A stretch of DNA of 32,000 nucleotides from Acidothermus cellulolyticus 11B (GCF_000015025.1 NC_008578.1:1830001-1862000); one strand, 5' to 3'. Numbered from the stretch's first letter, positions 2,014 through 21,148 are shown. Notes: generated by a model not told the origin, from the sequence alone. Numbers and translations are program-made.

Positions 2014-2652
2014 TCACGCCTTGTCGACAGATCTCTCACGGAGCTGCCGCTCCGCCGCTTCCAGATCGGTAGGGGTATCGACGTCCACCGGCATCACAAG
2101 ATCGTCACACCAGATCTCGGTTACCCAGTCGGGGTGCGCACGCATCAGCGATCTCGCACCTTCGTCACCTGCGGCGAGTCGCACTGCTTCAGGCCAGCAG
2201 TCGCGACTCAGGAGAACGGGGTGTGCCCGCCGGTCTCCATACTTCGCCGCCGCGATCCGCGCTCCGGACTGGAACGCACGAATCACCCGCCGCACGGCAA
2301 GTGAAGTGATTCCCGGCTGGTCGCCAAGCGCCACGACGACCGCATCGGCGTGACTCGCCGCCAGAGCATCAAGGCCCGTTCGCAGACTCGTGGCAAGACC
2401 CGCCGACCATGCGGTGTTGTGAACAAGTCGCAGCCGTCGATGCTGCACCGCTGACGAGGAGCGAAGCGCAGCGGCCGCCTCCTCCCACGCCGCGCCACCG
2501 ACCACGACGATCGGTGCCACACACCCACCGCTGAGCAGCGCGTCGGCCACGTATTCCACAAGGTATCGGTCAGCCAACCGGACGAGAATCTTCGGCTTGC
2601 CGAAGCGGGTACCACCACCTGCGGCAAGGACAAGGCCGGCCACCCGGGTCAT
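2014..2652 (-). CDS. MobA-like NTP-transferase; likely molybdenum cofactor cytidylyltransferase (MocA/CoxF-like)
   Basis: N-terminal LVLAAGGGTRFGKPKIL nucleotidyl-transferase motif. Length 212 aa. ATGA start/stop overlap with the upstream XdhC-family gene (2649-2652). Confidence 0.8.
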   Translation of the reverse strand: MTRVAGLVLAAGGGTRFGKPKILVRLADRYLVEYVADALLSGGCVAPIVVVGGAAWEEAAAALRSSSAVQHRRLRLVHNTAWSAGLATSLRTGLDALAASHADAVVVALGDQPGITSLAVRRVIRAFQSGARIAAAKYGDRRAHPVLLSRDCWPEAVRLAAGDEGARSLMRAHPDWVTEIWCDDLVMPVDVDTPTDLEAAERQLRERSVDKA

Positions 2653-3737
2653 CGTCGAACGGGTCCGGCGGTTTCGCGCAATGGCCTACCGCTCGCCGCG
2701 TGCCGACTCGCGATGATCTCAGCCATGATCGATATTGCGGTCTCCTCCGGGGTCGATGAGCCGATGTCCAGGCCGATCGGCGAATGCAGCCGGTTGAGCG
2801 CCTCCGTCGAGACTCCCGCCGCACGCAGGGCGGCGAGGCGTTTGGCGTGGGTGCGGCGACTTCCCAGCGCGCCGATGTAGCCGGCAGGGGTGGCGAGGGC
2901 CGTTTCGAGCAGCGGAATATCGAACTTCGGGTCGTGGGTGAGCACACAGACTGCGGTGCGCTCATCGACCTCCACACCGCCAAGGTAGCGGTATGGCTGA
3001 TCGACAATGATTTCGTCGGCCTCCGGGAAACGCTCCCGCGTCGCAAATACTGCACGGGCGTCACACAGCACGACGTGATATCCGAGCAATTTGGCGGCGC
3101 GCACCAGCGCTGCGGCGAAGTCAGTCGCACCAAATATCAGCATGCGCGGGGGCGGCAGAAAAGTCTCGACAAAATAACGGCCGCCGTCCACGGTTACGAC
3201 CGCGGTTGTTCCAGACTTGAGCATGGCACGCATCTCGGCGACCAGAGCAACGGCCGAGGCTTCCGGATGTGACGGCGGCAGCACAGCCCCCTCCGTGACA
3301 ATGACGTGGTCACCGAGGACGTCGTCGGAGAGACCGGTGGCCGACGCAACCGGAACTCCGCCGGCGACATCCCGGGCAAGGTCGGCGAAATGCGGATGCC
3401 GCCCAGCGTCGATCCGCTCGATATAGACGTCAATGTCTCCGCCGCACGTGAGTCCCACGGCGAATGCGTCCTCGTCGCTCACGCCGTAGTGGGCAAGCAC
3501 CGGAGAACCGTCCTTTATCACGTGCATCGCGGTCTCGTAGACGGCTCCCTCGATGCACCCGCCAGAGACGCTGCCGACGACTGTGCCATCGCCACTGATC
3601 GCCATCGCGGCGCCCGGGCCGCGCGGCGCGCTGCCGAAGATACGGACCACCGTCACCAAAGCGAACGGACGGCGAGCGGCAAACCACCGGCTGGTGGCGC
3701 TAAACAGTTCCCGTGCGGACACGTGCATGCCTCCCAC
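2649..3737 (-). CDS. XdhC/CoxI-family molybdoenzyme maturation (accessory) protein
   Basis: 362 aa. The N-terminal part resembles an XdhC_CoxI domain (FALVTVVRIFGSAPRGPGAAMAI...GSVSGGCIE), followed by a Rossmann-like XdhC_C part (MLIFGATDFAAALVRAAKLLGYHVVLCDAR). The exact start is uncertain: GTG 3737, ATG 3728 or GTG 3722, with GGGAGG just upstream. Confidence 0.85.
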   Translation of the reverse strand: MGGMHVSARELFSATSRWFAARRPFALVTVVRIFGSAPRGPGAAMAISGDGTVVGSVSGGCIEGAVYETAMHVIKDGSPVLAHYGVSDEDAFAVGLTCGGDIDVYIERIDAGRHPHFADLARDVAGGVPVASATGLSDDVLGDHVIVTEGAVLPPSHPEASAVALVAEMRAMLKSGTTAVVTVDGGRYFVETFLPPPRMLIFGATDFAAALVRAAKLLGYHVVLCDARAVFATRERFPEADEIIVDQPYRYLGGVEVDERTAVCVLTHDPKFDIPLLETALATPAGYIGALGSRRTHAKRLAALRAAGVSTEALNRLHSPIGLDIGSSTPEETAISIMAEIIASRHAASGRPLRETAGPVRR

Positions 3738-3936
3738 TAGCGACGGTACCGCCGTCGGCTACGGGGACGCACAAGCCTGAACCAATCGGTTCGGCGCCAG
3801 GATGCCGCTGTCCTAGAACAACGCAATTCCGCCGCCACCGAGACGACCTCGGCTGCGAACAAATGATCGGACGGCGCCCGCCGGAGCTCTACGCGTGGCT
3901 CATCACTCCCGGAGGTCACGAGGCGCACAGGCGCAC

Positions 3937-4560
3937 TCAGCCGGCATCGCCCGGTCCATGGAAGATCTCCCAGAGCAGCGGCTTCCGCCTGCCGGCGTTG
4001 CACGGGTTCAGATCTTGCGGACAGTTAGATAGCGCAACGACGAGATCCATCTTCGCCAGGAATTCGACGTAGTCGCCTGCACCAGCATTCGGTTCCTCGA
4101 TAGACCACGTACCATCCGGTCGCACCGGACAGTTCATAAAGAGGTTGAACGACATAGGTATATCACACCGACGAAGCCCCCACGGCCTTAGCGCCTCACA
4201 GAAATTCTCCACACATCCGCGGTGTCCTTCTACTCCATATCGTACATTGTCAATCTCAGCATTACACGAGCCGGCTAAGAGGTCATGCGGCTCTCCACTG
4301 CTTGCGAGAATTTGCAGCATAGGTCTACTCAGCTCCGAATAGAGGACGTTGCCGGTCGTCAGGTAAATCGAGCCATTCAGACGTATTGTGTTCGAGACCC
4401 AGAATCGTTCACTCAAGTCATCCGCCGCAAAGGCAATAAGGTCACCGACTTGCTTGCCTTCGATGTTGGTCACGCGAAGGACCTGGCCCGTGATGATTTT
4501 CGTTGCGATGTACCCGCCCGGTTCAATCACGGAAGATGTCAAGAGCCTAGCCTCTGCCAT
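3937..4560 (-). CDS. DUF1989 (urea-carboxylase-associated family) protein
   Basis: 207 aa. The pattern GGYIATKIITGQVLRVTNIEGKQVGDLIAFAADD...SNTIRLNGSIYLTTGNVLYS...HDLLAGSCN is typical of the DUF1989 cyclophilin-like family as I remember it. AGGAG lies 8 nt upstream of the ATG. Confidence 0.65.
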   Translation of the reverse strand: MAEARLLTSSVIEPGGYIATKIITGQVLRVTNIEGKQVGDLIAFAADDLSERFWVSNTIRLNGSIYLTTGNVLYSELSRPMLQILASSGEPHDLLAGSCNAEIDNVRYGVEGHRGCVENFCEALRPWGLRRCDIPMSFNLFMNCPVRPDGTWSIEEPNAGAGDYVEFLAKMDLVVALSNCPQDLNPCNAGRRKPLLWEIFHGPGDAG

Positions 4561-4843: not shown

Positions 4844-6649
4844 TCATGCAATCGCCTTTGGCTGCCGCGCTGCGGCGTGTTGTCTTCCATGCGACGAAGA
4901 CTCACTTCCATCGCTCGCGTTGAGACTGCCGAGGATCTCATCCATTTCGAGAAGTCTCAACGCGACGCTGATTCTCATTGAGGCCTCTGCGTCATCGATG
5001 AACGGACCTAGAAGATGCTCAAGCTTGGCGACACGGTACCTCATGGTGTTGTAGTGATAGTGGAGGGTACGGGCGGTTTCGGCGACATTGCATCGGTTCT
5101 CCAGCAGAGCTGAGAGTGTTGTCAACAAATCAGATCTGGACGGTTGCGGAAGGCGGAGGAGCGGTCCGAGTGTCTCGATCACGAACGAGCGCAAGTCGTC
5201 GGGACCTACATTGCAGAGGAGGCGATAGATGCCGAGTCGGGAATAACTCGTCACTGCCCCGGCCCCAGTCAGCCTGTTGCCAACAGCGAGAGCCACGCGA
5301 GCTTCCTGGTAAAGGCGGGGGATCTGGTCGGGGGCAGTACCAGGACCGCTAATGCCCACCGAAAAGTTCCCCAAGCCGGTCGTAACGAGTTCGTTCCGAA
5401 CCATGCGTGCGATGTGCTCCGCTTTACCGGCGTCAACCACAGCTACAAGCTCAGCGGCAAATCCGGCCGCCGCCGCTGCCGAATCATGGTTCCGGACAAG
5501 TGACGTCCACTGATTGACAACCCTCAGGGCCGCCAGTTCCCGAGCGCGAGGATGGAGATCAATCGCACCGGGAAGCTCGTGCTGACGCGCCACAATGACA
5601 CTTACGGTGCGGTTCAGATTCCAGCCAAAAGTCGTCGCATATGCAACCGAGTCGACGCCGCCTGCGGACCCACCCGTCACAAGGTCGTGGAGTGCGTTCG
5701 ATGCAAAATGGCGTTCAACGGAAGCCACCGCCAGTTCCCTGGTGATCTCCAGTGCAGCGACGAGAGCAGCCTGCTCGACTGCGGTTGTACGCACGAACGG
5801 CAGACGTCGCTGGCTCCCATCGACGGCAATGACGTAGCCATGCTCAAGACCGCCTGCAGAGATCTTGGCAACGGACCAAGGTGCGTCAGACGACGTTGGA
5901 GAAGAAGCGTCCAATAGGCGCTCGATCGCGATACAACCGTCTGAGCGTAGCAGTCCAGCCTGCTCAAACGATGCCCGATCGTCGCTGATCGCGCGAACTG
6001 ATCCTGCCCGATCCACGATTGCAACCGCTGCGCCTCCGAGCATGTCCGAAAGCTCCTTGACCAGCAACGCAAGCCCGCCGCCGGTGAGGGCGACCGTCAG
6101 TAACCGATGATGAAAGTCATGCGTCAGTTTGAGAGCCAGGGCTTGACGATTGACGATGATGGTGAACGCCTGGCTCAAGACTTCATCCAGCGCCGTCTCA
6201 TGTGGGATAATGATCACGGGAAAGTTCAACCGATCTGCTGTCGCAAGCACTTTCGGTGCGAGGTTCGACATGTACTGGTCCAGTTTCACACCTAATCCAG
6301 CCAAGCCTCGCTCGGACAACTGCTCAACCAGGCCTGAGAACTCATCCGGATCGCGAGGCAAGGGATACCCAGTAGCCAACAGAAATTCGTCGCGTCGGGT
6401 CCACCGGACGATATCCGGTACCGACATGACGTTCAGACAGGCTATGCCCCGCTCCAACCCGCCTCGACCTGCGACGATGCTTGCGCTCCGCATCACATCG
6501 TGCTCGAGCAACTCGGCAACGGTGAGCGTCATGCGCGTTATCGGTGAAACACCATCCGGCGCAGCGCGTTCGGCGTTACGGCTCGTAACGATATCGGATG
6601 ACATGCGGTCGGATTGCTGATCGGAGGAGCGAACCGTTGACTCACACAT
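4844..6649 (-). CDS. PucR-family transcriptional regulator (purine-catabolism-regulator-like, C-terminal HTH)
   Basis: C-terminal PucR-type HTH: LENRCNVAETARTLHYHYNTMRYRVAKLEHLLG. The N-terminal region is PucR-like (VAELLEHDVMRSASIVAGRGGLERGI). I placed the start at ATG 6649 (MCEST...) because GAGG lies 5-8 nt upstream and it sits 2 nt after the stop of the upstream gene. The maximal ORF extends to 6709. Confidence 0.85.
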   Translation of the reverse strand: MCESTVRSSDQQSDRMSSDIVTSRNAERAAPDGVSPITRMTLTVAELLEHDVMRSASIVAGRGGLERGIACLNVMSVPDIVRWTRRDEFLLATGYPLPRDPDEFSGLVEQLSERGLAGLGVKLDQYMSNLAPKVLATADRLNFPVIIIPHETALDEVLSQAFTIIVNRQALALKLTHDFHHRLLTVALTGGGLALLVKELSDMLGGAAVAIVDRAGSVRAISDDRASFEQAGLLRSDGCIAIERLLDASSPTSSDAPWSVAKISAGGLEHGYVIAVDGSQRRLPFVRTTAVEQAALVAALEITRELAVASVERHFASNALHDLVTGGSAGGVDSVAYATTFGWNLNRTVSVIVARQHELPGAIDLHPRARELAALRVVNQWTSLVRNHDSAAAAAGFAAELVAVVDAGKAEHIARMVRNELVTTGLGNFSVGISGPGTAPDQIPRLYQEARVALAVGNRLTGAGAVTSYSRLGIYRLLCNVGPDDLRSFVIETLGPLLRLPQPSRSDLLTTLSALLENRCNVAETARTLHYHYNTMRYRVAKLEHLLGPFIDDAEASMRISVALRLLEMDEILGSLNASDGSESSSHGRQHAAARQPKAIA

Positions 6650-6651
6650 TG

Positions 6652-7632
6652 CTACCTCACTGTTGGCGGTGCCGACATGCACGGATCTTCGACCAGCGAC
6701 CGCGCCCACGCGAGATCCTCCTCCGAGGGCTCTGGGACGCTCCCGTCGAAATCGAGGAGGTCTAATGGGTTTGCCGAGATCATCCTTCTGACATCTTCCT
6801 CGGACACGCCCTTCTCAAAGATGGTCTGTGCAAATATTCGTAGGGCCTCTGAAGGCAGCGGATTATGGCGCTGCCCCGTATCTGACACGAGCAGGCAACG
6901 GGAGGCGCCGATTCGCTCGATGCTCTGCACAATCTTTGGTACTGCCGCGTACTGCCATGCCGGGGAGACCGTGCAATACCCAAACTCGGGCATGGCGCCA
7001 AGGCGGGCCACCTCTTCCAAGGTATCCAGGTCGAGGTTGGGTACCCTAAAGTACGGATGAGTTATGACAATCTTCTCGACGCCCACCGAACGTGCCTCTT
7101 TCACGAGTGCCACGATCTCGCGAGGAGCGAGGTGCGCCGTCCCCAGGATCGCACCATACTGTGCGACCAGCTCAAGAATCTCCTTTACCTCGGGACGTAG
7201 CTTGCCCTCTTTGTCCTCGATCCAGATCCCCTCGGCCTGACTGCGCCCACCCTGCTGGGCGTCGTAACCCCCCGTACCGCCGTGCACCGCGGCGTGGTAG
7301 CCAGCATCCACGGTAGGCATCCACACTTCCTTGCCGCCTAACCGGAGCGCAGCTTCAACAGCCGCGGCATTGAGGCCGCCAACGTAATAGTTAAGAACAA
7401 TTCCGCCATAGACACGGATACCTGGGATAACGCGCTGAACCAGGTAGGCGCGGGAGACAGTACTCTCGTGGTGGCATTTCAGCATGATGGCCTTCATGCC
7501 AGCGTCACGTGCGGCGCGCACAATGTCGAAATCATCCGCAAGTCGCGGGAACAGGTCGGGATACGGATGACAGTGGAGATCAGCCGCGCCGACGACATCG
7601 ATCAATGGACCACCATATGTACGCTTGCCCAT
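6652..7632 (-). CDS. Metal-dependent TIM-barrel hydrolase, amidohydrolase superfamily (DUF6282-like)
   Basis: 326 aa. It has an N-terminal HxH motif (DLHCHPYPD) and later His/Asp-containing strands (KCHHES, GTAHL, ITHPY, VSDTG). The assignment is by motif pattern only and the substrate is unknown. Confidence 0.55.
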   Translation of the reverse strand: MGKRTYGGPLIDVVGAADLHCHPYPDLFPRLADDFDIVRAARDAGMKAIMLKCHHESTVSRAYLVQRVIPGIRVYGGIVLNYYVGGLNAAAVEAALRLGGKEVWMPTVDAGYHAAVHGGTGGYDAQQGGRSQAEGIWIEDKEGKLRPEVKEILELVAQYGAILGTAHLAPREIVALVKEARSVGVEKIVITHPYFRVPNLDLDTLEEVARLGAMPEFGYCTVSPAWQYAAVPKIVQSIERIGASRCLLVSDTGQRHNPLPSEALRIFAQTIFEKGVSEEDVRRMISANPLDLLDFDGSVPEPSEEDLAWARSLVEDPCMSAPPTVR

Positions 7633-7634
7633 CC

Positions 7635-8858
7635 CTAGCTCCCTGGCTTGACACCTACTGCTTCCTCATGAACAGGCACGGATCGGCCGACAATCCGCGC
7701 CCATCCTTCAGGGTCGGTCGCGCCCTCGGTCGATAGCAGAAGAATGACGGCGTTCTCGTCGAGGTGCAGCCGCTCGCGCCACGCAGTAGGAGCACGGTGG
7801 TCACAGAGCGCCAGAAGGCCGCCCAGGGAGGCGGCACCACTCTCTCCCGAGATGACACCGATGTCAGCGAGCTCGCGCATCGCCCGACGGCTCCACTCAT
7901 CATCAATCGCCACGACGACATCAAGACCCTGAGACACGAATGGCCAGGCCACAGCAGACGGCGTCCCGCAATTGAGACCTGCCATGATCGAGTGGTGTGG
8001 GCCCGGCACAGTCACAAGACGCCCCTCACGGATGGACGACTGGACACAGTTGGCCGTCACAGGCTCAACTCCGATAACGATTGGCCGTACGCCGTCTCCC
8101 AATTCCGGCTTGTAGTAGTTGATCACCGCAGCCGCCAGTGCACCGACACCCACAGGCACGACGATCAGGCTTGGCTCGGGACTGCCATGGCCCGCCAACT
8201 GTTCCGACGCTTCGAAAAAGATCGTTGAATATCCCTCAATCACACGCCGCGGTATTGACGTGTAGCCCGGCCACGAGGTATCTGAGATCACGAGCGTGTG
8301 CTCATCTTCATCCTGCGCCGACCGGCGGATTGCGGCATCATAATCCCCGCGCACAATCTCGACCACGGCACCCTCAGACTTGATGGCAGAAATACGTGCC
8401 GGAATCGTGCCCTCCGGTACATAAATCTTCGCCGGACACTGGAGCAGCTTCGCCATCCGGGCGACCGCTCGGCCGTGGTTGCCGTCCGTCGCTGCGACAA
8501 ACGTAATCGGCCTTAGGGGATCGATGGCTGTCTTGAGATCCTCCACGCTGGACCACGTAATCTCGTGGCCAAGTCGATCAATGAGGGCGCAGTAGATCGC
8601 ATAGGATGCGCCCAGAATCTTGAAAGAAGGCAAGCCAAGGCGCCAGGATTCGTCCTTCACCCAAACGCGCCTCACCCCGAGCCGCGAGGCGATCGAGGAA
8701 CTCTCAACAAGAGGAGACGGCGCGTACGCCGGCAATTTGCGATGAATGGCGAGCGGTCGCGCTGTCCGCGTCGCACCGGCTACGTGCGTGACGGCGGCGG
8801 AATTGACGACTACCTCCGGCAGCGGAGGAGGTGCGGCTGACACCGTCACCGCAATCAT
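7635..8858 (-). CDS. PLP-dependent diaminopropionate ammonia-lyase-like enzyme (DpaL/YgeX family)
   Basis: The segment AIHRKLPAYAPSPLVESSSIASRLGVRRVWVKDESWRLGLPSFKILGASYAIY matches the N-terminal DpaL/YgeX pattern, with the PLP lysine in SFKILGA. It has fold-type II features (ATDGNHGRAVA). Start chosen at ATG 8858, which forms an ATGA overlap with the CoxG-like stop. In-frame alternatives are 8879 and 8909. Confidence 0.8.
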   Translation of the reverse strand: MIAVTVSAAPPPLPEVVVNSAAVTHVAGATRTARPLAIHRKLPAYAPSPLVESSSIASRLGVRRVWVKDESWRLGLPSFKILGASYAIYCALIDRLGHEITWSSVEDLKTAIDPLRPITFVAATDGNHGRAVARMAKLLQCPAKIYVPEGTIPARISAIKSEGAVVEIVRGDYDAAIRRSAQDEDEHTLVISDTSWPGYTSIPRRVIEGYSTIFFEASEQLAGHGSPEPSLIVVPVGVGALAAAVINYYKPELGDGVRPIVIGVEPVTANCVQSSIREGRLVTVPGPHHSIMAGLNCGTPSAVAWPFVSQGLDVVVAIDDEWSRRAMRELADIGVISGESGAASLGGLLALCDHRAPTAWRERLHLDENAVILLLSTEGATDPEGWARIVGRSVPVHEEAVGVKPGS

Positions 8859-9570: not shown

Positions 9571-10056
9571 TTACTCTTCCTTTTCTGCACGTCGCATGGC
9601 CGCGTAATCCTCGATCGCGTCAAGTATCTTCGTGTAGCCGGTGCAGCGGCAGATGTTTCCCACCAGTGTGTAACGGATCTCGTCACGCGAGGGCAGGGAG
9701 CGCCGTTCGACGAGGTCATACGCCGTAAGCAACATTCCCGGGGTGCAGAAACCGCACTGCGATGCACCGTGGCGTAGGAAGCTTTCCTGCAAGGGGTGAA
9801 GCGCGTCGCCTTCTCGGCACAACCCAGCGGCTGTGATGATGTCCCGCCCGTCTGCCTGCACGCCTAGCATCAAGCACGCACTCACGGGCGAGCCGTCAAG
9901 GAGAACCGTACATGTCCCGCAGACCCCTTCGCCGCATCCGTAACGCACGTCAGGCATACCGAGTCGATCGTGTAGCACGTCGACGAGCGTTTCCTGTGAC
10001 TCGACAGGTACCGTACGTCGCACTCCATTCACGACGAGGGTTATTTCGTGTTTCAC
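9571..10056 (-). CDS. Molybdenum hydroxylase small subunit, [2Fe-2S]-binding (CoxS/XdhC-iron-sulfur type)
   Basis: Two cluster motifs are present: CGEGVCGTCTV and CGFCTPGM...NICRCTGY. Length 161 aa. GTGA overlap with the FAD subunit gene. Confidence 0.92.
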   Translation of the reverse strand: MKHEITLVVNGVRRTVPVESQETLVDVLHDRLGMPDVRYGCGEGVCGTCTVLLDGSPVSACLMLGVQADGRDIITAAGLCREGDALHPLQESFLRHGASQCGFCTPGMLLTAYDLVERRSLPSRDEIRYTLVGNICRCTGYTKILDAIEDYAAMRRAEKEE

Positions 10057-13659: not shown

Positions 13660-14568
13660 TCAGGATGACGATGAGGGACTCAGGAGTGACGTGTCCGGTA
13701 TTCCCCACTTACTGGCATCCGTCTTGTATTGAGCAGAGGACAAGTACCACTCAACATCGCTCCGCAATGCGGGCAACATCGGGCTGTTCTTGGCAACTGC
13801 AATACCGACTTCTATTTCTGTCCCCGGTACAACAAAGGCCACCCCATATGCCCCGGGCTTTTGCTTTTGCACATAAATCAGTGAAAGTGAATCTTCGATG
13901 ATTCCGAACAGTCGGCCATTATCGATCTGAGCAAGCTCGTCGGATACGGCCTGGAAGGACTTGAGATCGAGGCCAGCCTTTCCCGCGCTCTTGCACTTCT
14001 GTGTCATTGAGTTGCCGGCCTCAGCTTCACTCGGGCTGCCGGTCACCACGCCGATGGGCTTCCCGCATAAGTCAAGCTCGCTCTTCGTCGTCGATAGATT
14101 CTTCTGGGCTACGAGCACGGATAGGCCGCTCTTCATGTATGGCACGAAGTCAACCACCTTCTCCCGCTCAGCCGTCACGTAGACGTCGGAGACAGCCATG
14201 TCAAGCTGACCCGACTGGATCGCCGGGATCAAGCCACTGAAGTTCGAGATCTGGATCGTGTAGTTCTGATGAACGTGATCCATAAGTGCCTTGATCATAT
14301 CCGCTTCGAAGCCCTGAACCTTGGAGGGATCAGACGGATCGCGGATCATCATGGGAGGAAAGTCGGCCGAGGTTCCGATCTTCAGCGTTCCCGCCTTCAG
14401 CGGCTGCGCGCCGGCCGTGCCGACAGCGCTCGTACCGGCCGCGGACGCCGTAGAGCGTGCACTTGATCCGGCGGAACTGCCGGAGCTGCTACACGCCGTG
14501 ACAGCAAGGCTCACCAGAATTCCCGTGCAGATGACGTGACCCGTCGCCCCCCGTATGGACCTCTTCAT
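13660..14568 (-). CDS. ABC transporter substrate-binding lipoprotein, family 3 (polar amino acid type)
   Basis: Lipoprotein signal MKRSIRGATGHVICTGILVSLAVTAC, followed by a Ser/Ala-rich tether and an SBP_bac_3-like body (LKIGTSADFPPM...GFEADMIKAL...LDMAVSDVYVTAEREKVVDF). The start could also be 14592/14595 or 14643. Confidence 0.85.
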   Translation of the reverse strand: MKRSIRGATGHVICTGILVSLAVTACSSSGSSAGSSARSTASAAGTSAVGTAGAQPLKAGTLKIGTSADFPPMMIRDPSDPSKVQGFEADMIKALMDHVHQNYTIQISNFSGLIPAIQSGQLDMAVSDVYVTAEREKVVDFVPYMKSGLSVLVAQKNLSTTKSELDLCGKPIGVVTGSPSEAEAGNSMTQKCKSAGKAGLDLKSFQAVSDELAQIDNGRLFGIIEDSLSLIYVQKQKPGAYGVAFVVPGTEIEVGIAVAKNSPMLPALRSDVEWYLSSAQYKTDASKWGIPDTSLLSPSSSS

Positions 14569-15096
14569 AAGCACCACCCGCTTTCTGCGCATCATGCCGG
14601 ATGACGACCGCCTTGCCGATGCCGCTGATCGGTCGTATGGCATACGGTTGTCCTTCTGATGCTAGGGTGGGGGTGCGGTGTTGCTTAGGTCACACGCTTA
14701 CAATAATGCGAGTTTGTCGTAGTCAAGAAGTGCTACAAGGCTGGGGTGGCTGCTCTGAAATGGCGGCGCGACTCCGCGTTTTTCTACCGCTCCAACTCCT
14801 ATTTCGCCTATCCGCTGTAACCCGCGGCATGGGTGCGATAGCCCCGGCAGGGAGAGCACGGTTCGCTACACGGCGTGATAACACGTTTATAACGCTTCGG
14901 CAGCAATTTTCACTCGAGATCGCAACACTGGATGGGCGGCTGATGCTATGAGGCCCGCGTCAGCGACGCGACCTGCGAGCCTAGGATGTGAGCCAACGGC
15001 CAGGTCATGAGAGCCCCGCTGCTCAGGGGTATTCCGACAGTCCGGTGAGGGGGGACGCAGCCCCGCCATCTGCAACGTCGTACTGACAAGCTCGGC

Positions 15097-17445
15097 TTAT
15101 GCGGCGCCTCGGATGGGATTGTCGCGCAGCAAGTCGAGCAGCCGCTCGGGCGTCATGGGAAGGCGGCGCGGTTCAATACCAATTGCGTCGGCAATAGCAC
15201 TCGCGATCGCCGCCGCAACCGGACCGATGGGCGGCTCGCCGATGCCTCGCGCCTGCATGGGTCCCTTCCCTTCGCCGCTCTCAACGATCCTGACCGTGAT
15301 GTCGGGAACCTCAAGAGCGGTTGGTACTAGGTAGTCTGCAAAGAGCGTTGACTTGGGTATACCTTCGTCCAACTCCACCTCTTCCATCAATGCATAGCCG
15401 AGGCCCTGTGCCACACCGCCCTGGATCTGGCCTTCTACCCGTAAGGGGTTGATAGACCGCCCTACATCATGTGACGCGACGTATTTCAGCACTGTTACGC
15501 AGCCAGTTTCGAGATCCACTTCAACCTCTGCAGCATGCGCACCGTAGGTGTAATCCGGGAAAGTCGCTCCCTTGCCGGTCGTCGGATCAAAGCTCCCAAC
15601 CGGCGCCCGCCAGGTATAAAGCACGGCGGGACTCACGCCGCGACTCTCGCACTCGCGAGCCAGCGTCGCGAGATTGATGCCCTGGCCTGCGGTTTCCCCG
15701 CGAGCGACGAAGACGGCGCCGTCACGAAACTCAAGTTGCTCGGGGGTGGTATTGAGGATGCCAGCCGCGACATCTGCGAGTACGCGGCGGAGTTCGAGAG
15801 CCCCATGGAGCACAGCATTACCCGACATATAGAGCTGCCGGGTCGCAAATGTGCCTCCCGCAGGTGGGTTCAGGGCTGTATCCCCGATGTGGACACTGAT
15901 CTCGTCTAACGACACACCCAGCACCTCGGAGGCGATCTGGCAAAGGCTGGCGGCTTGGCCACCACCGAGATCGGTGATGCCGCTGCGGATGGTCAGACTG
16001 CCATCGGCGGACAGACTCAGCCAGACAGATGCCTGATCGTGGAACCATGCCGTGCGCCCGTAGGGTTGCATGTTGCATGCCAAGCCCCTGCCGATCCGCT
16101 TCCGTGGTGAACTCGGCGCGGACGGCGCACCGAGCGCGTACATCGCCTGGTCAAGGGTTTCCTCGATTGCAACTGTCGTGTCGACGCGCTCCCCAGTTGG
16201 ACGAAGGTCGCCCTTTCGCAAGAAGTTCCGCTTGCGTATCTCGTCTGGCGGTAGGTTGAGAACCCGCGCCAGACGATCCATCTGACCTTCGTAGCCGAAC
16301 ACGACCTCCATTGCGCCGAAACCACGAAATGCACTTGTCGGCACTTGATTAGTAAAGACTGCACGCGATCGAACTCGCGCATGAGGAATGCGATAGGGGC
16401 CGCATGCAGTAACCGCGGCAGCGAACATGACCCTCGCACTCAGGTAGGGATAGGCGCCGGCATCACCTACGATGTCGACTTCCTGCGCCGTAATGACGCC
16501 GTCGCGACGTGCACCAGTCTTGTACTTCATTACGAACGGCGCACGCTTAGTGGTCGCCAGAATGGACTCCTGCCGCTCAAAGATCATGCGCACTGGGCGT
16601 CGGGTATACCAAGCAAGAAGTGCCACGTAAGGTTCCACCGTCATGTCTTCTTTCCCGCCAAATCCACCACCCATGTACGTACTGATGACCCTCACTCTGT
16701 TTTGCGGGAGATTGAGGATTTCAGCAATCTCGGCCGCATGCTCGACCACCTGGGTGGCAGCCCTGATCGTAAGGATCCCTTGGTCCATCCAGGCCACCGC
16801 GGCTTCGGGTTCCAGGTACGCGTGCTCGACGAACTGTGTCCGATACTCCTCCTCGACGACGACGTCAGCCTCGCGAAATCCTGCTTCGACGTCTCCGCAG
16901 CTGATGTTCCAAGTGATCAGGACATTCCCTTCCTCGTGCACTAAAGGAGCATCGGGCAAGAGAGCCGACAGCGGATCATAAACACCGGGAAGCGGTTCAA
17001 GGTCGATGTCCACCAGCTCAGCCGCCTGGTCCAGCGCTGCTCGCGTTTCCGCAGCCACCAGAGCCACCGGCTCGCCCGCATAGCGCACTCTGTCCGCCGC
17101 AAGAACAGGCATGGCCACGTCAAGCTCGCCAAGTCCTCCACTGGCGTGGGTGGCGATACGGTTGACCGGCACATCCCGCGCTGTCAGCACCGCAGCCACA
17201 CCGGGCACCTCAAGGGCCTTCGACACGTCGATCGCCCGGATCCGCGCGCTCGCCATCGGGCTGCGGACCACCTTGCCGAGCAGCATGCCGGGCAGCGACC
17301 AGTCCTCCGCATAGAGCAGCGAACCCTTGACCTTCTCGATGAAGTCATGACTCATTATCGACTTTCCGACGACTCGTCGATCAGTTGCGACCACCGACGA
17401 GTCCGTCGCGATACCGCCGACGGAATCTACGGACGTGTCGCTCAT
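15097..17445 (-). CDS. Molybdopterin-binding large subunit of an XDH/aldehyde-oxidase-family hydroxylase (not a CO dehydrogenase)
   Basis: 782 aa. Motifs: YMGGGFGGKEDMT, TSAFRGFGAME and the C-terminal catalytic-Glu motif RGIGEPPIGP. It lacks the CODH signatures AYxCSFR and AYRGAGR. ATGA overlap with the upstream CoA-transferase B gene. Confidence 0.92.
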   Translation of the reverse strand: MSDTSVDSVGGIATDSSVVATDRRVVGKSIMSHDFIEKVKGSLLYAEDWSLPGMLLGKVVRSPMASARIRAIDVSKALEVPGVAAVLTARDVPVNRIATHASGGLGELDVAMPVLAADRVRYAGEPVALVAAETRAALDQAAELVDIDLEPLPGVYDPLSALLPDAPLVHEEGNVLITWNISCGDVEAGFREADVVVEEEYRTQFVEHAYLEPEAAVAWMDQGILTIRAATQVVEHAAEIAEILNLPQNRVRVISTYMGGGFGGKEDMTVEPYVALLAWYTRRPVRMIFERQESILATTKRAPFVMKYKTGARRDGVITAQEVDIVGDAGAYPYLSARVMFAAAVTACGPYRIPHARVRSRAVFTNQVPTSAFRGFGAMEVVFGYEGQMDRLARVLNLPPDEIRKRNFLRKGDLRPTGERVDTTVAIEETLDQAMYALGAPSAPSSPRKRIGRGLACNMQPYGRTAWFHDQASVWLSLSADGSLTIRSGITDLGGGQAASLCQIASEVLGVSLDEISVHIGDTALNPPAGGTFATRQLYMSGNAVLHGALELRRVLADVAAGILNTTPEQLEFRDGAVFVARGETAGQGINLATLARECESRGVSPAVLYTWRAPVGSFDPTTGKGATFPDYTYGAHAAEVEVDLETGCVTVLKYVASHDVGRSINPLRVEGQIQGGVAQGLGYALMEEVELDEGIPKSTLFADYLVPTALEVPDITVRIVESGEGKGPMQARGIGEPPIGPVAAAIASAIADAIGIEPRRLPMTPERLLDLLRDNPIRGAA

Positions 17446-18227
17446 GACGCTCGCCCCCTGCGCACCGCGGCCTCACCATCGCGGAGCAACCGGTAGGTAT
17501 CGAGTTCATCCTCGGACGGCGGGTCGATCTCACCAATTTCATCCGCCATCAGCAGCTCGAAGCCCGTTGCAGCCTCAACCTGCTCGACGGAAGCGCCGCG
17601 TTGCACAGCGCACAGCCGGAGCCGTCGAGAGTGCGGTTCAAAGTCCATCAGCGCGAGATCGGTGATGACGACACTGACCCTGCCGAAGATAAGACCTGCA
17701 GCCTCCCTGGACTTCTCGCCGGTGAGATAACCCGGGCTCGTAATGAAGTCAACCTTCTCGACAAAGCGGCGCGGCTCGTGCACTGTCGCAATCAACACCT
17801 CATTACAGAGGGAGATGATGTCGTTAGCGCCTCCGCTCCCGGGCAGGCGGACGCGAGGCTGTGCGTAACTTCCGATGACACTGGTGTTGATGTTGCCGAA
17901 CTTGTCAATCTGTGCGGCGCCAAGGAAGCCGTAGTCGAAAAAGCCACGTTGCGCAAACAGGAAGATGTCCGTTACGTCCGTCAACATCTCCGCACCATGT
18001 GCAGCGCTCATCTCGTTCGTCGAGATCGGGAGGTGGCCCGGCATGAGACGGGTCCCTATGATCCCACCCTCGAGAACGATCGTCAAGTGAGGAGCCTGGC
18101 GACGCCGTGCAAGCGCTGCGGCCAGTAGCGGCGTACCCACGCCCGCGAAGACAACCTTGTGATCGGCGAGCATCCGGCTTGCCGTAATAGCCACAATTTC
18201 CTCAGGTGTGACATCCTGCCTACTCAC
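17442..18227 (-). CDS. CoA-transferase subunit B (glutaconate/3-oxoacid CoA-transferase family)
   Basis: 261 aa. Typical beta-subunit pattern (ASRMLADHKVVFAGVGTPLLAA...IVLEGGIIG...GAAQIDKFGNINTSVIG). GTGA overlap with subunit A. Confidence 0.8.
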   Translation of the reverse strand: MSRQDVTPEEIVAITASRMLADHKVVFAGVGTPLLAAALARRRQAPHLTIVLEGGIIGTRLMPGHLPISTNEMSAAHGAEMLTDVTDIFLFAQRGFFDYGFLGAAQIDKFGNINTSVIGSYAQPRVRLPGSGGANDIISLCNEVLIATVHEPRRFVEKVDFITSPGYLTGEKSREAAGLIFGRVSVVITDLALMDFEPHSRRLRLCAVQRGASVEQVEAATGFELLMADEIGEIDPPSEDELDTYRLLRDGEAAVRRGRAS

Positions 18228-19177
18228 GGCGCCAACCTCTTCGCAGCAGCGACGAGATCATCAAGTGTGCCGGGTGGCAGGGAGGCCAGAAAGCCGGCAA
18301 AGTCGTCATGCTGATCCACATGCTCGGCAATGTACTCTCGTGCGCCATCTGGGCCTTTCGCCTTCACTAAATTGACGTATTCGTCGAAGTGCCGGAGGTC
18401 GGCATGATAGAGGCCGTAACACTCACTGGGATATGCGCCGAACGGTGCCTCGACGATAGCATCAACCGCGAAGTGCGGAAGAATCGTCGTGGTCGGTAAA
18501 GCCCGGATCTCGTCGCTGCTCACGATCTGCTCGACGCTCACAATGACGCGCCGCGCCGCTCGAGCCATGTCCACATCCATGTGGCGATAGCCGTCCACCT
18601 GAACGTTCCCGTAGATATCGGATCGATGCGCGTGAATCAGCGCGACATCGGGGTTCAGCGCGGGTAGTGCAGCGAGCCGCTGTCCTGTGTAGGGACAGTC
18701 GACCTCGCGCAACTCAACGGTCCGCGCGATGTCTGATCCGAGCATCGTCAGCGCTGGAAGGAACGGCACACCCATTGCACCTGCCTTGTAACGCAGGCCT
18801 ATGCCTAGATGACTCCACTCCTCGTAGACAGCCTGTCCTGTCTCGACGTAATGTCGCATGATCTGCGGCAAGCCCCATTTTAAACCGATGCCGATCCAGC
18901 TCGTAATCACGCGATCGGCCATCCCTGCCGCATAAAATAGCTCCGCCTCGTAGCACGTGAGAGGTCGAGAGATTGTCAGGTGGCGGCGCCGCGTCTTCAA
19001 GAGCGCGAACACAAGGGCCATGGGTGTTCGTGAGTACAAGGTACCGCCGATTGCGACGTGATCCCCATCATGAACAAGCTCCATCGCCTGAGTGGCCGAC
19101 ATGCGCTTGTCAAGCATCCGCCGGTCGGTCGCCTCGAGTTCCCAGCGAACGGACCGGAAGTCCACCGACGCGCTCAT
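18224..19177 (-). CDS. CoA-transferase subunit A (glutaconate CoA-transferase GctA-like)
   Basis: 317 aa. Alpha-subunit pattern (SATQAMELVHDGDHVAIGG...YEEWSHLGIGLRYKAGAMGVPFLP...IHAHRSDIYGNVQVDG). Its ATG overlaps the LLM gene stop by 1 nt (TAATG). Confidence 0.8.
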   Translation of the reverse strand: MSASVDFRSVRWELEATDRRMLDKRMSATQAMELVHDGDHVAIGGTLYSRTPMALVFALLKTRRRHLTISRPLTCYEAELFYAAGMADRVITSWIGIGLKWGLPQIMRHYVETGQAVYEEWSHLGIGLRYKAGAMGVPFLPALTMLGSDIARTVELREVDCPYTGQRLAALPALNPDVALIHAHRSDIYGNVQVDGYRHMDVDMARAARRVIVSVEQIVSSDEIRALPTTTILPHFAVDAIVEAPFGAYPSECYGLYHADLRHFDEYVNLVKAKGPDGAREYIAEHVDQHDDFAGFLASLPPGTLDDLVAAAKRLAP

Positions 19178-20124
19178 TAATGCTCAGGCCTCCAATCGAG
19201 CATAGGAAGCACTTCTTTAGTTAAGCGATCGACTTGCTCATATTCATAATTCCACGGACAGAACACAATGTGCTGTACCCCGGCGTCGACGTGTTGCTGA
19301 ATCTGTTCCGCACACTGCTCGGGAGTACCGCAAATCGAACTTTCTGGAGTCGAGTCACTCCACTCGGCCACGTCAAAGTAGCTCGCAACATAGGCCATGC
19401 ATTTCGCACGCGCATCCTCGTACGTACGGTCAATACAGATCGGCAATTGGGCGACATTGCGTAGTTCATCAGGGTCACGTCCCGCTTCCTCGGCAAACAT
19501 GCGAATCTTTTTCCAAGATTTCGCAAATGCATGTGCAGTGTAGAAGTAGGTAAGCCAGCCATCGCTCTTCGTCGCGACACGCTTCAACACTCGATCGACG
19601 TAACCACCGATGAGAACCTGTGGACGTGGCTCGGGACGTGGGAGCATCCTCACATGAGTAAATGTTCGGTCTTCGTACTGACCGTTGACGTCGTCCTCCG
19701 TCCAGAGGCGGTACAGTATTTCGAGGTTGCGCTCGAAGATCCTTCCTCTCATATGGAGCGGAACTCCAGTAATTGCAAACTCCCGCTCATACCAGCCGGC
19801 AGACATGCCGAGCGTCAAGCGACCGCCGCTGGCCAACTGGAGCGTGCCGGTCACCTTTGCCAAGAGCACGGGCTCGCGGATCGGGAGCACAAGCACCCCG
19901 GTACCCAACTCGATTCTCTTGGTGTGCGCCGCGACAAGGCTAAGGGTGGTAAGCGACTCAAGGAACGGGAACGCCCTTTTCGAGCCAAGGATCAGATGAT
20001 CCCACACCCACACGGAAGAGAGGCCGGCCTGTTCGGCCTTCAGGGCGTATTCGATCACGGCATCCATCGAGACGCCGATATTCTCCGGTGCAAAGTTCGC
20101 GAGGGCCAGGCCGAAACGTGTCAT
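19177..20124 (-). CDS. Luciferase-like (LLM-class) flavin/F420-dependent oxidoreductase
   Basis: LLM pattern MTRFGLALANF...AEQAGLSSVWVWDHL...GTGVLVLPIREPVLLAK...LTLGMSAGW. Start chosen at ATG 20124 (codon 40 of the maximal ORF 19177..20241) because the homology begins there and GGAG is directly upstream. F420 use is inferred only from the neighbouring F420 reductase gene. Confidence 0.8.
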   Translation of the reverse strand: MTRFGLALANFAPENIGVSMDAVIEYALKAEQAGLSSVWVWDHLILGSKRAFPFLESLTTLSLVAAHTKRIELGTGVLVLPIREPVLLAKVTGTLQLASGGRLTLGMSAGWYEREFAITGVPLHMRGRIFERNLEILYRLWTEDDVNGQYEDRTFTHVRMLPRPEPRPQVLIGGYVDRVLKRVATKSDGWLTYFYTAHAFAKSWKKIRMFAEEAGRDPDELRNVAQLPICIDRTYEDARAKCMAYVASYFDVAEWSDSTPESSICGTPEQCAEQIQQHVDAGVQHIVFCPWNYEYEQVDRLTKEVLPMLDWRPEH

Positions 20125-20458
20125 CTCCACACCCTTGCAATGCCACCGTGATCCGGGATGGGGACCCCGTAGCACGGTTGACGGACGAACGCTCCGAGGA
20201 TTTGCCACCAGAACGCTATCGACCGGCACGGCGCAGTGCATTGTCTCCAGTTGCTAAAGCTTCGTGTAGATCTTCGTACAGCGTGGCTACATGACTGCGT
20301 GATGGGCCGGACATTTGGGCGGCATCGGCTCGATGGTCACGGTGTGATCAGATGCTGAACGGGAGCGTTGCCAGCCGGCAATTTCTGTCATGTCTCGAAC
20401 AGCGGCGGACTGGTACCGTTCCAGGCAGACCACACGTGGAGACCGAAGGAGTCGGTGC
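20125..20458. promoter_or_regulatory. Divergent intergenic region between the LLM/CoA-transferase/large-subunit operon and the F420 reductase gene
   Basis: A 334-nt gap separates two divergently oriented start codons (20124 minus, 20459 plus). Promoters for both units must lie here, but I could not define -10/-35 boxes. Confidence 0.4.
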
Positions 20459-21148
20459 ATGGAACGACTTCGGCTTGCCGTCATTGGAGGCACGGGTCCG
20501 CAGGGTCGCAGTCTGGCCTATCGGTTCGCCGTGGCGGGCCACCATGTCGTCATCGGCTCTCGCGTCGCGGAGCGAGCCTCACGGACGGCAGAGGAGATTC
20601 AGTTGCGTGTTCCACGGTCATCTGTGGTGGGCCGAACGAACAACGAAGCAGCAGCCGACTGTCCGGTTATCCTTCTCGCCGTACCCTACGATGGACATGC
20701 CGACGTCGTGACGTCGCTCCGAGATTGCCTTGTCGGCAAAGTTGTGATCAGCTGCGTCAATCCCCTTTTGGTTGACAAGACGGGCGCTCGAGCCGTGCGG
20801 GTTCCGCATGGCAGTGCGGCAGAGGAAGCCGCGGCGCTCGCACCAGGATCCGACGTCATCGCCGCTTTCCATCATCTTTCCGCAGCCAAGCTCTGGCGAG
20901 ACGACGAGAGTCTCAGGCAAGAAGACGTCCTCGTGTGCGGCGACAACCCGACCGCAAAGAATTTGGTGATGGAACTTGCGTCGGCGGTCACCGGCCGACC
21001 GGGGGTGGACGCCGGCCCGTTACGGATGGCCGGTGTGCTGGAATCGTTCACCGGAGTCCTGATCAATATCAACCGGCGCTACAAGACACGCTCGGGTATC
21101 GCAATCGTCGGTCTCGCCGGTCGGAACAGGCAGAGCCCAGGCGCCTAG
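20459..21148 (+). CDS. fno: NADPH-dependent F420 reductase (NpdG/Fno family)
   Basis: Motifs: MERLRLAVIGGTGPQGRSLAYRFAVAGHHVVIGSR (Rossmann GGTGxxG), LLAVPY, and the C-terminal GPLRMAGVLESFTGVLININ. Start chosen at ATG 20459, with GAAGGAG 7-13 nt upstream. The maximal ORF begins at 20390. Confidence 0.85.
   Translation: MERLRLAVIGGTGPQGRSLAYRFAVAGHHVVIGSRVAERASRTAEEIQLRVPRSSVVGRTNNEAAADCPVILLAVPYDGHADVVTSLRDCLVGKVVISCVNPLLVDKTGARAVRVPHGSAAEEAAALAPGSDVIAAFHHLSAAKLWRDDESLRQEDVLVCGDNPTAKNLVMELASAVTGRPGVDAGPLRMAGVLESFTGVLININRRYKTRSGIAIVGLAGRNRQSPGA

Follow-up and report, generated by a model that had tools for sequence, protein, structure and literature searches.

A conserved gene core shared by Acidothermus cellulolyticus and bacteria of several phyla, and its possible role in reductive-hydrolytic breakdown of an N-heterocyclic carboxylic acid

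The window analysed here is a stretch of 32,000 nucleotides (nt) from the genome of Acidothermus cellulolyticus 11B (NC_008578.1:1830001-1862000), and its subject is a row of catabolic genes between positions 2014 and 21148 that includes genes for a three-subunit molybdenum (Mo) hydroxylase, a coenzyme A (CoA) transferase, an oxidoreductase of a predicted F420-dependent family and a hydrolase-like protein of the family DUF6282. The reading we favour, at a probability of roughly 55%, is that this row is a lineage-specific elaboration of a widespread cluster that handles an N-heterocyclic carboxylic acid by hydroxylation, reduction and ring hydrolysis. The more specific proposition, that the conserved core of the row is the genetic basis of an undescribed and widespread pathway by which some common natural N-heterocyclic carboxylate is reduced and hydrolysed, is more tentative, and we place it a little short of even odds.

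The first line of evidence is the recurrence of the core in other genomes. From the alignment of DUF6282 homologues we fetched 80 loci of species-representative genomes with 10-kb flanks, and placed homologues of the window's proteins by tblastn and by open reading frame (ORF) calls that take account of GC3 (the G+C content at third codon positions), up to 10 kb on either side of the DUF6282 anchor. An earlier note on this DNA had asked for a gene-neighbourhood comparison across Actinobacteria; extended beyond them, the comparison finds eight recurring genes, which encode the three Mo hydroxylase subunits, a CoA-transferase pair of the GctAB type, a luciferase-like monooxygenase (LLM) of the TIGR03619 family, a two-cysteine protein of the arylmalonate decarboxylase (AMDase) family and DUF6282, with a fold-type-II pyridoxal phosphate (PLP) enzyme and a PucR regulator as their usual companions. 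Of the 80 loci, 62 have the AMDase-family, racemase-like gene and 56 the Mo large subunit; many of those that lack CoA-transferase and LLM are short contigs. Because the same genes stand in the same order in dozens of genomes of several phyla, the grouping of the core exceeds chance, and the cluster spans at least five bacterial phyla.

The order in Actinomycetota runs LLM, CoA-transferase A, CoA-transferase B, racemase-like gene, flavin adenine dinucleotide (FAD) subunit, iron-sulfur (FeS) subunit, Mo large subunit, sometimes CoxG and the PLP enzyme, then DUF6282 and PucR, after which an NCS1 permease often comes. In locus L088, a metagenomic relative, eleven genes stand next to one another in this order and an fno gene diverges from them, as in the window. 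Rearranged yet co-directional versions are found in Chloroflexota, Binatia, Thermodesulfobacteriota and Bacillota; the order in Binatia, Thermodesulfobacteriota and Syntrophobacterales metagenome-assembled genomes is CoA-transferase A, CoA-transferase B, LLM, FAD subunit, FeS subunit, Mo large subunit (split), racemase-like gene and DUF6282, and both the Bacillota and Binatia versions divide the Mo large subunit between two genes. In the window that gene has been relocated beside the CoA-transferase, with the importer genes between it and the rest, whereas in most Actinomycetota it follows the FeS gene. A gene for a DpaL-type or other fold-type-II PLP enzyme directly flanks DUF6282 in most lineages, and where the DpaL-type gene is missing another fold-type-II gene usually adjoins DUF6282 instead. 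PucR adjoins DUF6282 in Actinomycetota (∼50% identity) and takes first place in the cluster in Moorella-type loci. At least 15 Actinomycetota loci have an NCS1 permease flanking the core, and genes for an aldehyde dehydrogenase, a class-III aminotransferase, an isochorismatase-type amidase and a formamidase recur nearby.

Other genes of the row do not travel with this core. The solute-binding protein and ABC importer, XdhC, MocA and the neighbouring gene for a methyl-accepting chemotaxis protein (MCP) lie beside the core in none of the 80 other loci, DUF1989 homologues (31-64% identity) in about six, and CoxG in two (L040 and L063) as well as in L088. The solute-binding protein, ABC fusion, XdhC and MocA are accessories specific to the Acidothermus lineage, CoxG is a sporadic accessory of the Mo enzyme, and DUF1989 counts as a further accessory. 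The supercluster of seventeen genes that the earlier note had put forward as a unit thus survives as a core of eight to eleven genes, and not as the whole row, whose accessories are not conserved in the 80 loci.

Some relatives carry additions of their own. Downstream of DUF6282, loci L069 and L071 and about 20 related loci of Binatia and Thermodesulfobacteriota have a conserved co-directional tail with genes for a CysK-like protein (just over the cysK cut-off) and a PLP enzyme resembling ThrC, for a pair of UbiD-family decarboxylases, and for two amidohydrolases, one an Amidohydro_2 protein and the other of the chlorohydrolase family, which suggests an extended or different upper pathway in those lineages. 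In Moorella naiadis (L060), the stretch 14607-19093 downstream of the core encodes an M24 peptidase resembling creatinase and ectoine hydrolase, an M20 amidohydrolase resembling DoeB2, and a fumarate-reductase-like flavoprotein with a small Fe-S protein; these downstream genes resemble those for ectoine-degradation enzymes at scores below the cut-offs.

The second line of evidence is an exchange of reductases within the core. At least one of the two CoA-transferase genes and the LLM gene is found in 47 of the 80 loci (all three in 36, and LLM together with CoA-transferase in 37), a dihydroorotate dehydrogenase (DHODH)-type gene in 10, neither in 23 and both in none (Fisher p = 5.6e-5, uncorrected for phylogeny). 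CoA-transferase and LLM are missing from Moorella, Peptococcaceae, Syntrophaceticus, other Bacillota and some Anaerolineales; the replacement is a DHO_dh protein of 384 amino acids with two 4Fe-4S motifs, encoded between the racemase-like gene and DUF6282 and resembling PreA (287 bits, under the equivalog cut-off). A third variant, seen in two Chloroflexota-type loci, has a fumarate-reductase-like flavoprotein and a small Fe-S protein in the same slot. Because the CoA-transferase with LLM and the DHODH-type reductase replace each other, the pattern points to a C=C reduction step in the cluster, carried out by alternative reductases. The C=C that dihydroorotate dehydrogenase or fumarate reductase saturates bears a carboxylate, whereas hydride donors such as F420H2 generally need such a carboxylate activated as a thioester (enoyl-thioester chemistry). 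In keeping with this, CoA activation would be needed only in the F420 version, and we infer this to be the simplest account of why CoA-transferase and LLM are present, and lost, jointly. An alternation between DHODH-type and LLM reductases has been noted independently by Li et al. for ring reduction in the reductive urate pathway (PMC12507026).

All the gene families named in the earlier note are upheld by Pfam and NCBIfam scans and by PDB matches. The Mo enzyme has the domains of a three-subunit enzyme of the xanthine dehydrogenase (XDH) family on its three genes (Table 1). Its large subunit finds the alpha subunit of 4-hydroxybenzoyl-CoA reductase as the best single PDB chain (340 bits), and the L and M subunits of the Eubacterium barkeri nicotinate dehydrogenase as the best match when the halves are summed (289+197 bits). 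Read from the translation, a GIGEPP motif stands near its C-terminus, and the Glu of this motif may be the equivalent of the catalytic Glu1261 of the bovine enzyme. The NTP_transf_3 protein scores 138 bits with NboR and 113 bits with MocA, both under the equivalog cut-offs.

The CoA-transferase pair matches glutaconate CoA-transferase at 129 bits (1POI_A) and 128 bits (1POI_B). Glu53 of subunit B (VLEGG), kept in 21 of 21 orthologues, aligns with the Glu of GctB 'IVESG', presumably Glu54, where the decarboxylase AibB has Asn; both subunits and the catalytic Glu of a class I (GctAB-type) CoA-transferase are thus in place. A reading of the pair as an IpdAB- or AibAB-like non-transferase is less likely, given the far stronger match to GctAB and the retained Glu. 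The LLM protein scores 189 bits with Bac_luciferase and 175 bits with TIGR03619 (cut-off 167), which its Binatia and Chloroflexota orthologues also exceed (207-209 bits), and Fno scores 201 bits with TIGR01915 (npdG; cut-off 150), so that by curated cut-offs both are predicted members of F420 families. The PLP enzyme exceeds the cut-offs of PRK08206 (361 bits against 276) and TIGR01747 (291 against 274) and stays under that of the stricter TIGR03528 (301 against 532); it matches PDB 5YGR over its full length at 234 bits and retains the SFK (PLP-Lys) and ATDGNHG motifs, as a predicted member of the 2,3-diaminopropionate (DAP) ammonia-lyase family. The DUF1989 protein scores 163 bits with TIGR03424, under the cut-off, and 92 bits with PDB 3ORU.

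The AMDase-family protein had been called maleate-isomerase-like. The family stands (Pfam Amdase 91 bits; maleate isomerase 72 bits), with the racemase mutant G74C of AMDase (3IXM) as its top PDB match. Cys80, the pair Thr81-Ser82, Tyr132 and Cys193 are invariant in 49 of 49 orthologues; both cysteines align with the two of maleate isomerase 4FQ7, as in two-base racemases and isomerases, and the Thr-Ser pair and Tyr are the retained oxyanion-hole, carboxylate-binding residues of AMDase. AMDase has a single catalytic Cys (Cys188), and the wild-type chain 2VLB shows Gly (Gly74) at the position of the second racemase Cys, where the window's protein carries Cys, so that the protein lacks the single-Cys pattern of AMDase, and we rejected an AMDase-type decarboxylase on the ground that both racemase-type cysteines are invariant. 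Given the two cysteines and the oxyanion-hole residues, the protein is better read as a putative two-base racemase/epimerase or cis-trans isomerase.

The protein that the earlier note had described as an HxH TIM-barrel hydrolase is DUF6282 (Pfam 241 bits; 100% identical to a protein on record for A. cellulolyticus 11B), and a sequence search of the PDB with it gave no significant match. An AlphaFold2 model (pLDDT 65.5, pTM 0.71) takes the form of a (beta/alpha)8 barrel, whose Foldseek neighbours include the E. coli phosphotriesterase-homology protein (1BF6) and phosphotriesterase-like lactonases (for these E ∼1e-6 and TM ∼0.5), TatD and a putative 2-pyrone-4,6-dicarboxylate hydrolase. Across 73 sequences the residues H20, H22, K52, H54, H55, E56, H167, H192 and D251 are invariant, E102 is invariant as well, and in this medium-confidence model (TM ∼0.5 to its neighbours) H20/H22, E102, H167, H192 and D251 lie at strand ends, a picture that resembles the binuclear amidohydrolases and would fit a metal-dependent cyclic ester or amide hydrolase. 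Identity is 76-88% across many Actinomycetota, and the family as a whole comprises 3,286 clusters at 50% identity (E<=0.001), and 659 at E<=1e-30.

In a collection of plasmids we found only distant DUF6282 paralogues (31-39% identity) in unrelated contexts. One of these, at 8962-9882 of locus L090 on the Thermus oshimai plasmid pTHEOS01 (39% identity), lies in a cluster like those for protocatechuate 4,5-cleavage, beside genes for an extradiol dioxygenase, a 4-carboxy-4-hydroxy-2-oxoadipate aldolase, an NAD(P) oxidoreductase and a 4-hydroxybenzoate 3-monooxygenase; it occupies the expected place of the 2-pyrone-4,6-dicarboxylate lactonase and weakly supports ring hydrolysis as a theme of the family. 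On the Saccharopolyspora erythraea chromosome (L087, 10001-11053) there is an 84%-identical DUF6282 gene with no other core gene within 10 kb, which may be a remnant or encode a protein used alone.

The reaction steps and substrates that we infer from these observations would run as follows. The substrate would enter by the SBP_bac_3/ABC system in the window, and by an NCS1 permease in most related Actinomycetota. The Mo hydroxylase would add an oxo group at a ring carbon beside the nitrogen to give a lactam or cyclic amide; XdhC and MocA, which are needs of a Mo hydroxylase of the molybdopterin cytosine dinucleotide (MCD) type, would mature the enzyme, with CoxG assisting. The GctAB-type CoA-transferase would turn the ring carboxylate into a CoA thioester, the TIGR03619 LLM with F420H2 would saturate the C=C conjugated to it, and the divergent Fno would regenerate F420H2 from NADPH. 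The two-cysteine enzyme may then equilibrate the stereocentre formed at the carboxylate-bearing carbon (or the geometry of the double bond there), DUF6282 would cleave the ring at the amide bond, and the DAP-ammonia-lyase-family enzyme would deaminate the resulting amino acid as the terminal step, with PucR governing expression. The earlier note had proposed much the same logic for an imported heterocyclic carboxylate, namely hydroxylation, F420H2-type reduction, ring opening, deamination and CoA activation, and comparative genomics lends support to this logic, with the order of steps still resting on chemistry and analogy.

Two kinds of substrate come into question, each of them unlikely when taken individually. 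The nearest relatives of the Mo enzyme, the DUF6282 paralogue in a pyrone context and the likeness to the isonicotinate route of Mycobacterium sp. INA1 discussed below point to a pyridine carboxylate, whether of the isonicotinate/citrazinate, the nicotinate or the pyridine-dicarboxylate type. An imidazole or other diazole or diazine carboxylate, whose reduced cyclic urea might open to 2,3-diaminopropionate or to another beta-substituted amino acid like it, or a ring derived from purine, is favoured by the DAP-lyase-family enzyme, the NCS1 permeases and PucR, as well as by an isochorismatase-type amidase, a formamidase, a class-III aminotransferase and an aldehyde dehydrogenase that occur in occasional loci. 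The UbiD decarboxylases of the Binatia-type loci hint that the precursor is a dicarboxylate or that the route includes a carboxylation.

Several points weigh against the proposed handling of an N-heterocyclic carboxylic acid. No single candidate substrate accounts for every gene: a DAP ammonia-lyase misfits the pyridine carboxylates, and the closest solved relatives of the Mo enzyme, nicotinate dehydrogenase and 4-hydroxybenzoyl-CoA reductase, misfit the diazoles. The order of steps comes only from chemistry and analogy, the DUF6282 model is of medium confidence with TM ∼0.5, and the gene stands alone in Saccharopolyspora erythraea. The 80 loci are phylogenetically clustered, so that the exclusivity statistic overstates their independence, and the alternation of CoA-transferase and LLM with the DHODH-type gene may in part stem from a deep split into two clades with differences in several genes. 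The record of gene content was limited to tblastn and our own ORF calls in the 10-kb flanks, which under-counts genes farther away, including fno, which in the canonical order lies at the edge of the flank. An Rfam scan at E<=1 for riboswitches and other RNAs returned two tRNAs only, a promoter and terminator scan of 1900-21300 gave counts at or under shuffled expectation, and a search of seven intergenic regions for a common operator motif gave scattered 14-mers with one or two mismatches, none of them recurrent.

We consider it unlikely that the cluster is instead the reductive nicotinate pathway of the Eubacterium barkeri/Azorhizobium type, in which nicotinate is converted by way of 6-hydroxynicotinate and 1,4,5,6-tetrahydro-6-oxonicotinate to 2-formylglutarate and ammonia; DUF6282 would then take the part of the enamidase without being its homologue, and the CoA-transferase would channel products of the glutarate type into beta-oxidation. 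The nicotinate dehydrogenase of E. barkeri is the best solved relative of the Mo enzyme by summed halves, the Bacillota and Binatia versions split their Mo subunit as it does, and the reaction order of the nicotinate pathway (hydroxylase, reductase, amidohydrolase) matches the chemistry of the cluster, which shares three reaction types in the same order with the upper part of the E. barkeri fermentation (NdhFSLM, 6-hydroxynicotinate reductase and enamidase). L088 and a few other loci also carry an isochorismatase-family amidase beside the NCS1 permease, with 60 bits to the nicotinamidase model, under its cut-off of 174 bits. In 6-hydroxynicotinate, however, the bond that reduction saturates is C4=C5, which has no conjugation with the carboxylate, so that CoA activation would bring no obvious gain; and since ring opening in this pathway frees ammonia directly, the conserved PLP enzyme and the racemase-like enzyme would be unaccounted for. 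Family scans of the window revealed no enamidase, 2-(hydroxymethyl)glutarate dehydrogenase or dehydratase, or B12-dependent mutase; DUF6282 has no detectable sequence relation to enamidase, whose structure is deposited in the PDB, where DUF6282 matched nothing by sequence. The cluster adds CoA activation, F420, the racemase-like enzyme and a PLP lyase to the E. barkeri scheme, and the downstream B12 and Fe-S enzymes of that scheme are absent from it.

It is likewise improbable that the cluster is an F420- and CoA-using variant of the reductive urate (2,8-dioxopurine) pathway, in which the Mo enzyme would interconvert urate and the dioxopurine, ring reduction would fall to the LLM, DUF6282 would stand in for SsnA and/or HyuA, the racemase-like enzyme would act on a hydantoin intermediate and DpaL would turn 2,3-diaminopropionate into pyruvate. 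This pathway, published in 2025 and described from E. coli, Clostridium sporogenes and C. difficile, explains the ygeV-ygfT region of E. coli (PMC12507026, PMC12990295), to which the earlier note had likened the row. Its enzymes are XdhD/YgfM or XdhAC, YgfK/UacX, SsnA, HyuA, YgeW/UacY and YgeY, together with YgeX (PMC12990295, PMC12507026), the reductase being YgfK, a PF01180 DHODH-type protein, or in Chloroflexota a predicted PF00296 F420 LLM (PMC12507026), and the aminohydrolase SsnA being the marker used by Li et al. (PMC12507026). The XDH-family enzyme with its FAD subunit, a reductase of one of the interchangeable families (here the PF00296 LLM) and a YgeX/DpaL-type end are common to that pathway and the window, as is the use of an amidohydrolase fold for ring opening, and PucR and the NCS1-type permeases would suit substrates of the purine or hydantoin type. 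The likeness to the E. coli region extends to the YgeX-type last step and the general logic, and stops at SsnA, HyuA, YgeW/UacY and YgeY, of which Pfam and NCBIfam scans of the window's main ORFs found no homologue; no Amidohydro_1 or SsnA-type protein is among the scanned ORFs, DUF6282 belonging to another family, so that one hydrolase would have to replace four. The CoA-transferase pair, the two-cysteine racemase-like enzyme and DUF6282, conversely, are core here and absent there. Purine intermediates up to ureidomethyl-hydantoin bear no carboxylate (PMC12990295), and a GctAB-type CoA-transferase with its catalytic Glu kept therefore has no role in a purine route; that it requires a carboxylate speaks against purines as the substrate. 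Because the four enzymes are missing and a purine route could not use the CoA-transferase, the cluster is not a member of the reductive urate pathway.

The carboxylate route that we favour has a closer counterpart in chemistry than in sequence. The isonicotinate/citrazinate pathway of Mycobacterium sp. INA1 was reportedly described biochemically by Kretzer, Frunzke and Andreesen in 1993, and is said to employ a pair of Mo dehydrogenases, a reductase dependent on NADPH and a CoA synthetase and to need neither PLP lyase nor racemase. To our knowledge its genes were never reported, and it is the only route we know of, and an actinobacterial one, that joins Mo hydroxylation, a CoA thioester of the ring carboxylate, reduction and hydrolytic cleavage. 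The comparison is by described chemistry, and a literature search on isonicotinate and nicotinate intermediates found no modern follow-up of INA1 and nothing on the gene set of the cluster. With the aerobic maleamate pathways of nicotinate and picolinate (nic, pic) the cluster shares a multi-subunit Mo dehydrogenase and a protein of the maleate isomerase family, but it has no ring-cleaving dioxygenase, monooxygenase, deformylase or maleamate amidase, and its isomerase-family protein is always accompanied by a reductase and DUF6282. Family scans of the window found neither a ring-cleaving dioxygenase, as the earlier note had maintained, nor an isochorismatase-type amidase. The 2-furoyl-CoA pathway (HmfABCDE) and 4-hydroxybenzoyl-CoA reductase offer XDH-family enzymes whose substrates are aromatic acids in the form of CoA thioesters, and UbiD decarboxylases accompany the Binatia-type loci much as HmfF does in furoate breakdown; unlike the furoate route, the versions of the cluster in anaerobes are without any CoA-activating enzyme, and the cluster has a reductase and a PLP enzyme that furoate breakdown does not need.

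No mention of DUF6282 and no paper describing this enzyme combination were found in the literature searched, coverage of which was incomplete, so that an earlier description elsewhere is possible. The statement of the earlier note that the gene set matches no known pathway holds to the extent that we found no described pathway with the same set, and that the urate, E. barkeri nicotinate and maleamate pathways each lack members here. Reductive-hydrolytic catabolism of N-heterocycles is a known kind of pathway, while the enzymes of this cluster are largely uncharacterised. Few pathways are known for the reductive, oxygen-independent breakdown of N-heteroaromatic compounds, and some of these were never linked to genes. 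The carriers of the cluster are soil and peat Actinomycetota, Chloroflexota and Binatia, Thermodesulfobacteriota of the sulfate-reducer type and anaerobic Bacillota, and the three reductase solutions in one slot amount to a natural experiment that pins one step. If the proposed route is correct, it would give first functions to DUF6282 and to the TIGR03619 LLM clade of the cluster, and would add a new case in which activation as a CoA thioester makes F420H2-dependent dearomatisation possible; it might also furnish the missing genes for a route of the isonicotinate/citrazinate type, or genes for the breakdown of lignin-derived pyridine dicarboxylates or imidazole carboxylates. Solving the cluster would also give a role to a two-cysteine AMDase-family enzyme and improve the annotation of N-heterocycle turnover in soils and anaerobic habitats.

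The layout of the row is given in Table 1, in which coordinates are positions in the whole window and genes are taken from the ORF listing and translation. There are 16 coding sequences on the minus strand, from 20124 down to 2014, and one divergent gene on the plus strand; the earlier note had the co-directional row and the divergent fno right and counted seventeen minus-strand genes where the permease and ATPase are one fused ORF.

Table 1. Genes of the catabolic row in the window, in transcribed order of the minus strand, followed by the divergent gene
Feature	Coordinates	Strand	Basis
LLM oxidoreductase, predicted F420-dependent, TIGR03619 family	19177..20124	-	Pfam Bac_luciferase, TIGR03619
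Class I CoA-transferase subunit A, GctA-like	18224..19177	-	Pfam CoA_trans, 1POI_A
Class I CoA-transferase subunit B, GctB-like	17442..18227	-	1POI_B, aligned catalytic Glu
Mo hydroxylase large (molybdopterin) subunit	15097..17445	-	Ald_Xan_dh_C + MoCoBD_1 + MoCoBD_2
Polar-amino-acid-type solute-binding protein, lipoprotein-like N-terminus	13660..14643	-	SBP_bac_3
ABC permease + ATPase fusion, 559 amino acids	11870..13549	-	BPD_transp_1 + ABC_tran
Two-cysteine AMDase/maleate-isomerase-family enzyme	10960..11664	-	Pfam Amdase
Mo hydroxylase FAD-binding medium subunit	10053..10949	-	FAD_binding_5 + CO_deh_flav_C
Mo hydroxylase 2x[2Fe-2S] small subunit	9571..10056	-	Fer2 + Fer2_2
CoxG/SRPBCC-type protein, low-complexity tail	8855..9568	-	Pfam COXG 61 bits
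Diaminopropionate ammonia-lyase family PLP enzyme (YgeX/DpaL-like)	7635..8858	-	PRK08206, TIGR01747
DUF6282 putative amidohydrolase-superfamily metallohydrolase	6652..7632	-	Pfam DUF6282 241 bits
PucR-family transcriptional regulator	4844..6649	-	PucR + GGDEF_2 + HTH_30
DUF1989 protein, urea-amidolyase-associated type	3937..4560	-	Pfam DUF1989 192 bits
XdhC-family Mo-cofactor insertion chaperone	2649..3737	-	XdhC_CoxI + XdhC_C
MocA/NboR-like nucleotidyltransferase, probable Mo-cofactor cytidylyltransferase	2014..2652	-	NTP_transf_3 120 bits
NADPH-dependent F420 reductase Fno/NpdG, divergent from LLM gene	20390..21148	+	TIGR01915

The close junctions that had been listed were all found on checking the sequence: a TAATG at 19177 joins the LLM and CoA-transferase A genes, 4-nt overlaps (ATGA/GTGA) lie at 18224-18227, 17442-17445, 10053-10056, 8855-8858 and 2649-2652, and 2-nt gaps at 9569-9570, 7633-7634 and 6650-6651, behind the FeS, DpaL and DUF6282 genes respectively. 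The last of these presupposes that PucR starts with the ATG at 6649. The longest PucR ORF, 4844-6709 on the minus strand, has a GTG start and a 58-nt overlap with the end of the DUF6282 gene; the ATG is the more likely start, though public gene calls use the 621-amino-acid form. Wider gaps, of 453 nt (between the Mo large subunit and the solute-binding protein), 110, 205, 283 and 199 nt, break the row into sub-blocks (LLM to Mo large subunit; solute-binding protein and ABC fusion; racemase-like gene to PucR; DUF1989; and xdhC with mocA).

With all of these gaps but that of 110 nt taken as boundaries there would be at least five transcription blocks, and the row might then be a chance or merely regulatory juxtaposition of independent operons (Mo dehydrogenase with its maturation genes, amino-acid importer, CoA-transferase/LLM pair and DAP lyase), to which the want of a common operator motif in the intergenic regions and the behaviour of importer, XdhC and MocA (never with the core in other loci) and DUF1989 (only sporadically) would also be congenial, but this is very unlikely, as in relatives such as L088 the core genes from three of the blocks follow one another without a break and with translational coupling, the core co-occurs in a conserved order in different phyla, a Mo hydroxylase of the MCD type requires XdhC and MocA, and the entire row carries one compositional signature unlike its flanks.

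That signature is one of GC3. Every gene from mocA to fno has a value of 0.61-0.74, xdhC (0.74) being intermediate between cluster and flanks, whereas the flanking genes for the MCP, malic enzyme, moaA, orn and copA have 0.78-0.85, and the whole row is a single block of distinct composition. This is consistent with acquisition from outside, though no proof of it; no integrase or flanking repeats were seen around the block. Genes for tRNA-His (25719-25794) and tRNA-Lys (31376-31449) lie several kb to its right. The moaA gene that had been placed to the right of the row was found at ∼23620-24708 on the plus strand, with the radical-SAM motif CNMRCRYC, in the native high-GC portion of the window. 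Directly downstream of mocA and on the same strand, a gene at 331-1962 encodes a protein with an MCP signalling domain; its GC3 (0.78) is native, and its C-terminal ∼190 amino acids are without a family match. The racemase-like ORF with its GTG start has no exact-protein record, probably through the choice of start codon.

The 559-amino-acid transporter fusion carries BPD_transp_1 at residues 38-212 and ABC_tran at 319-477, the two halves being joined by a low-complexity linker of ∼90 residues, and the product is called identically in six independent assemblies of the same species. The top models for its ATPase are TcyN and EhuA, neither reaching the cut-off. The 110-nt spacer between the solute-binding protein and the fusion (13550-13659) contains a long inverted repeat rich in G+C, which in the transcribed orientation reads GTGAGGCGACCGGCCGCC...GGCCGGCCGCCTCAC and may form an intra-operon stem-loop that tunes the ratio of solute-binding protein to transporter.

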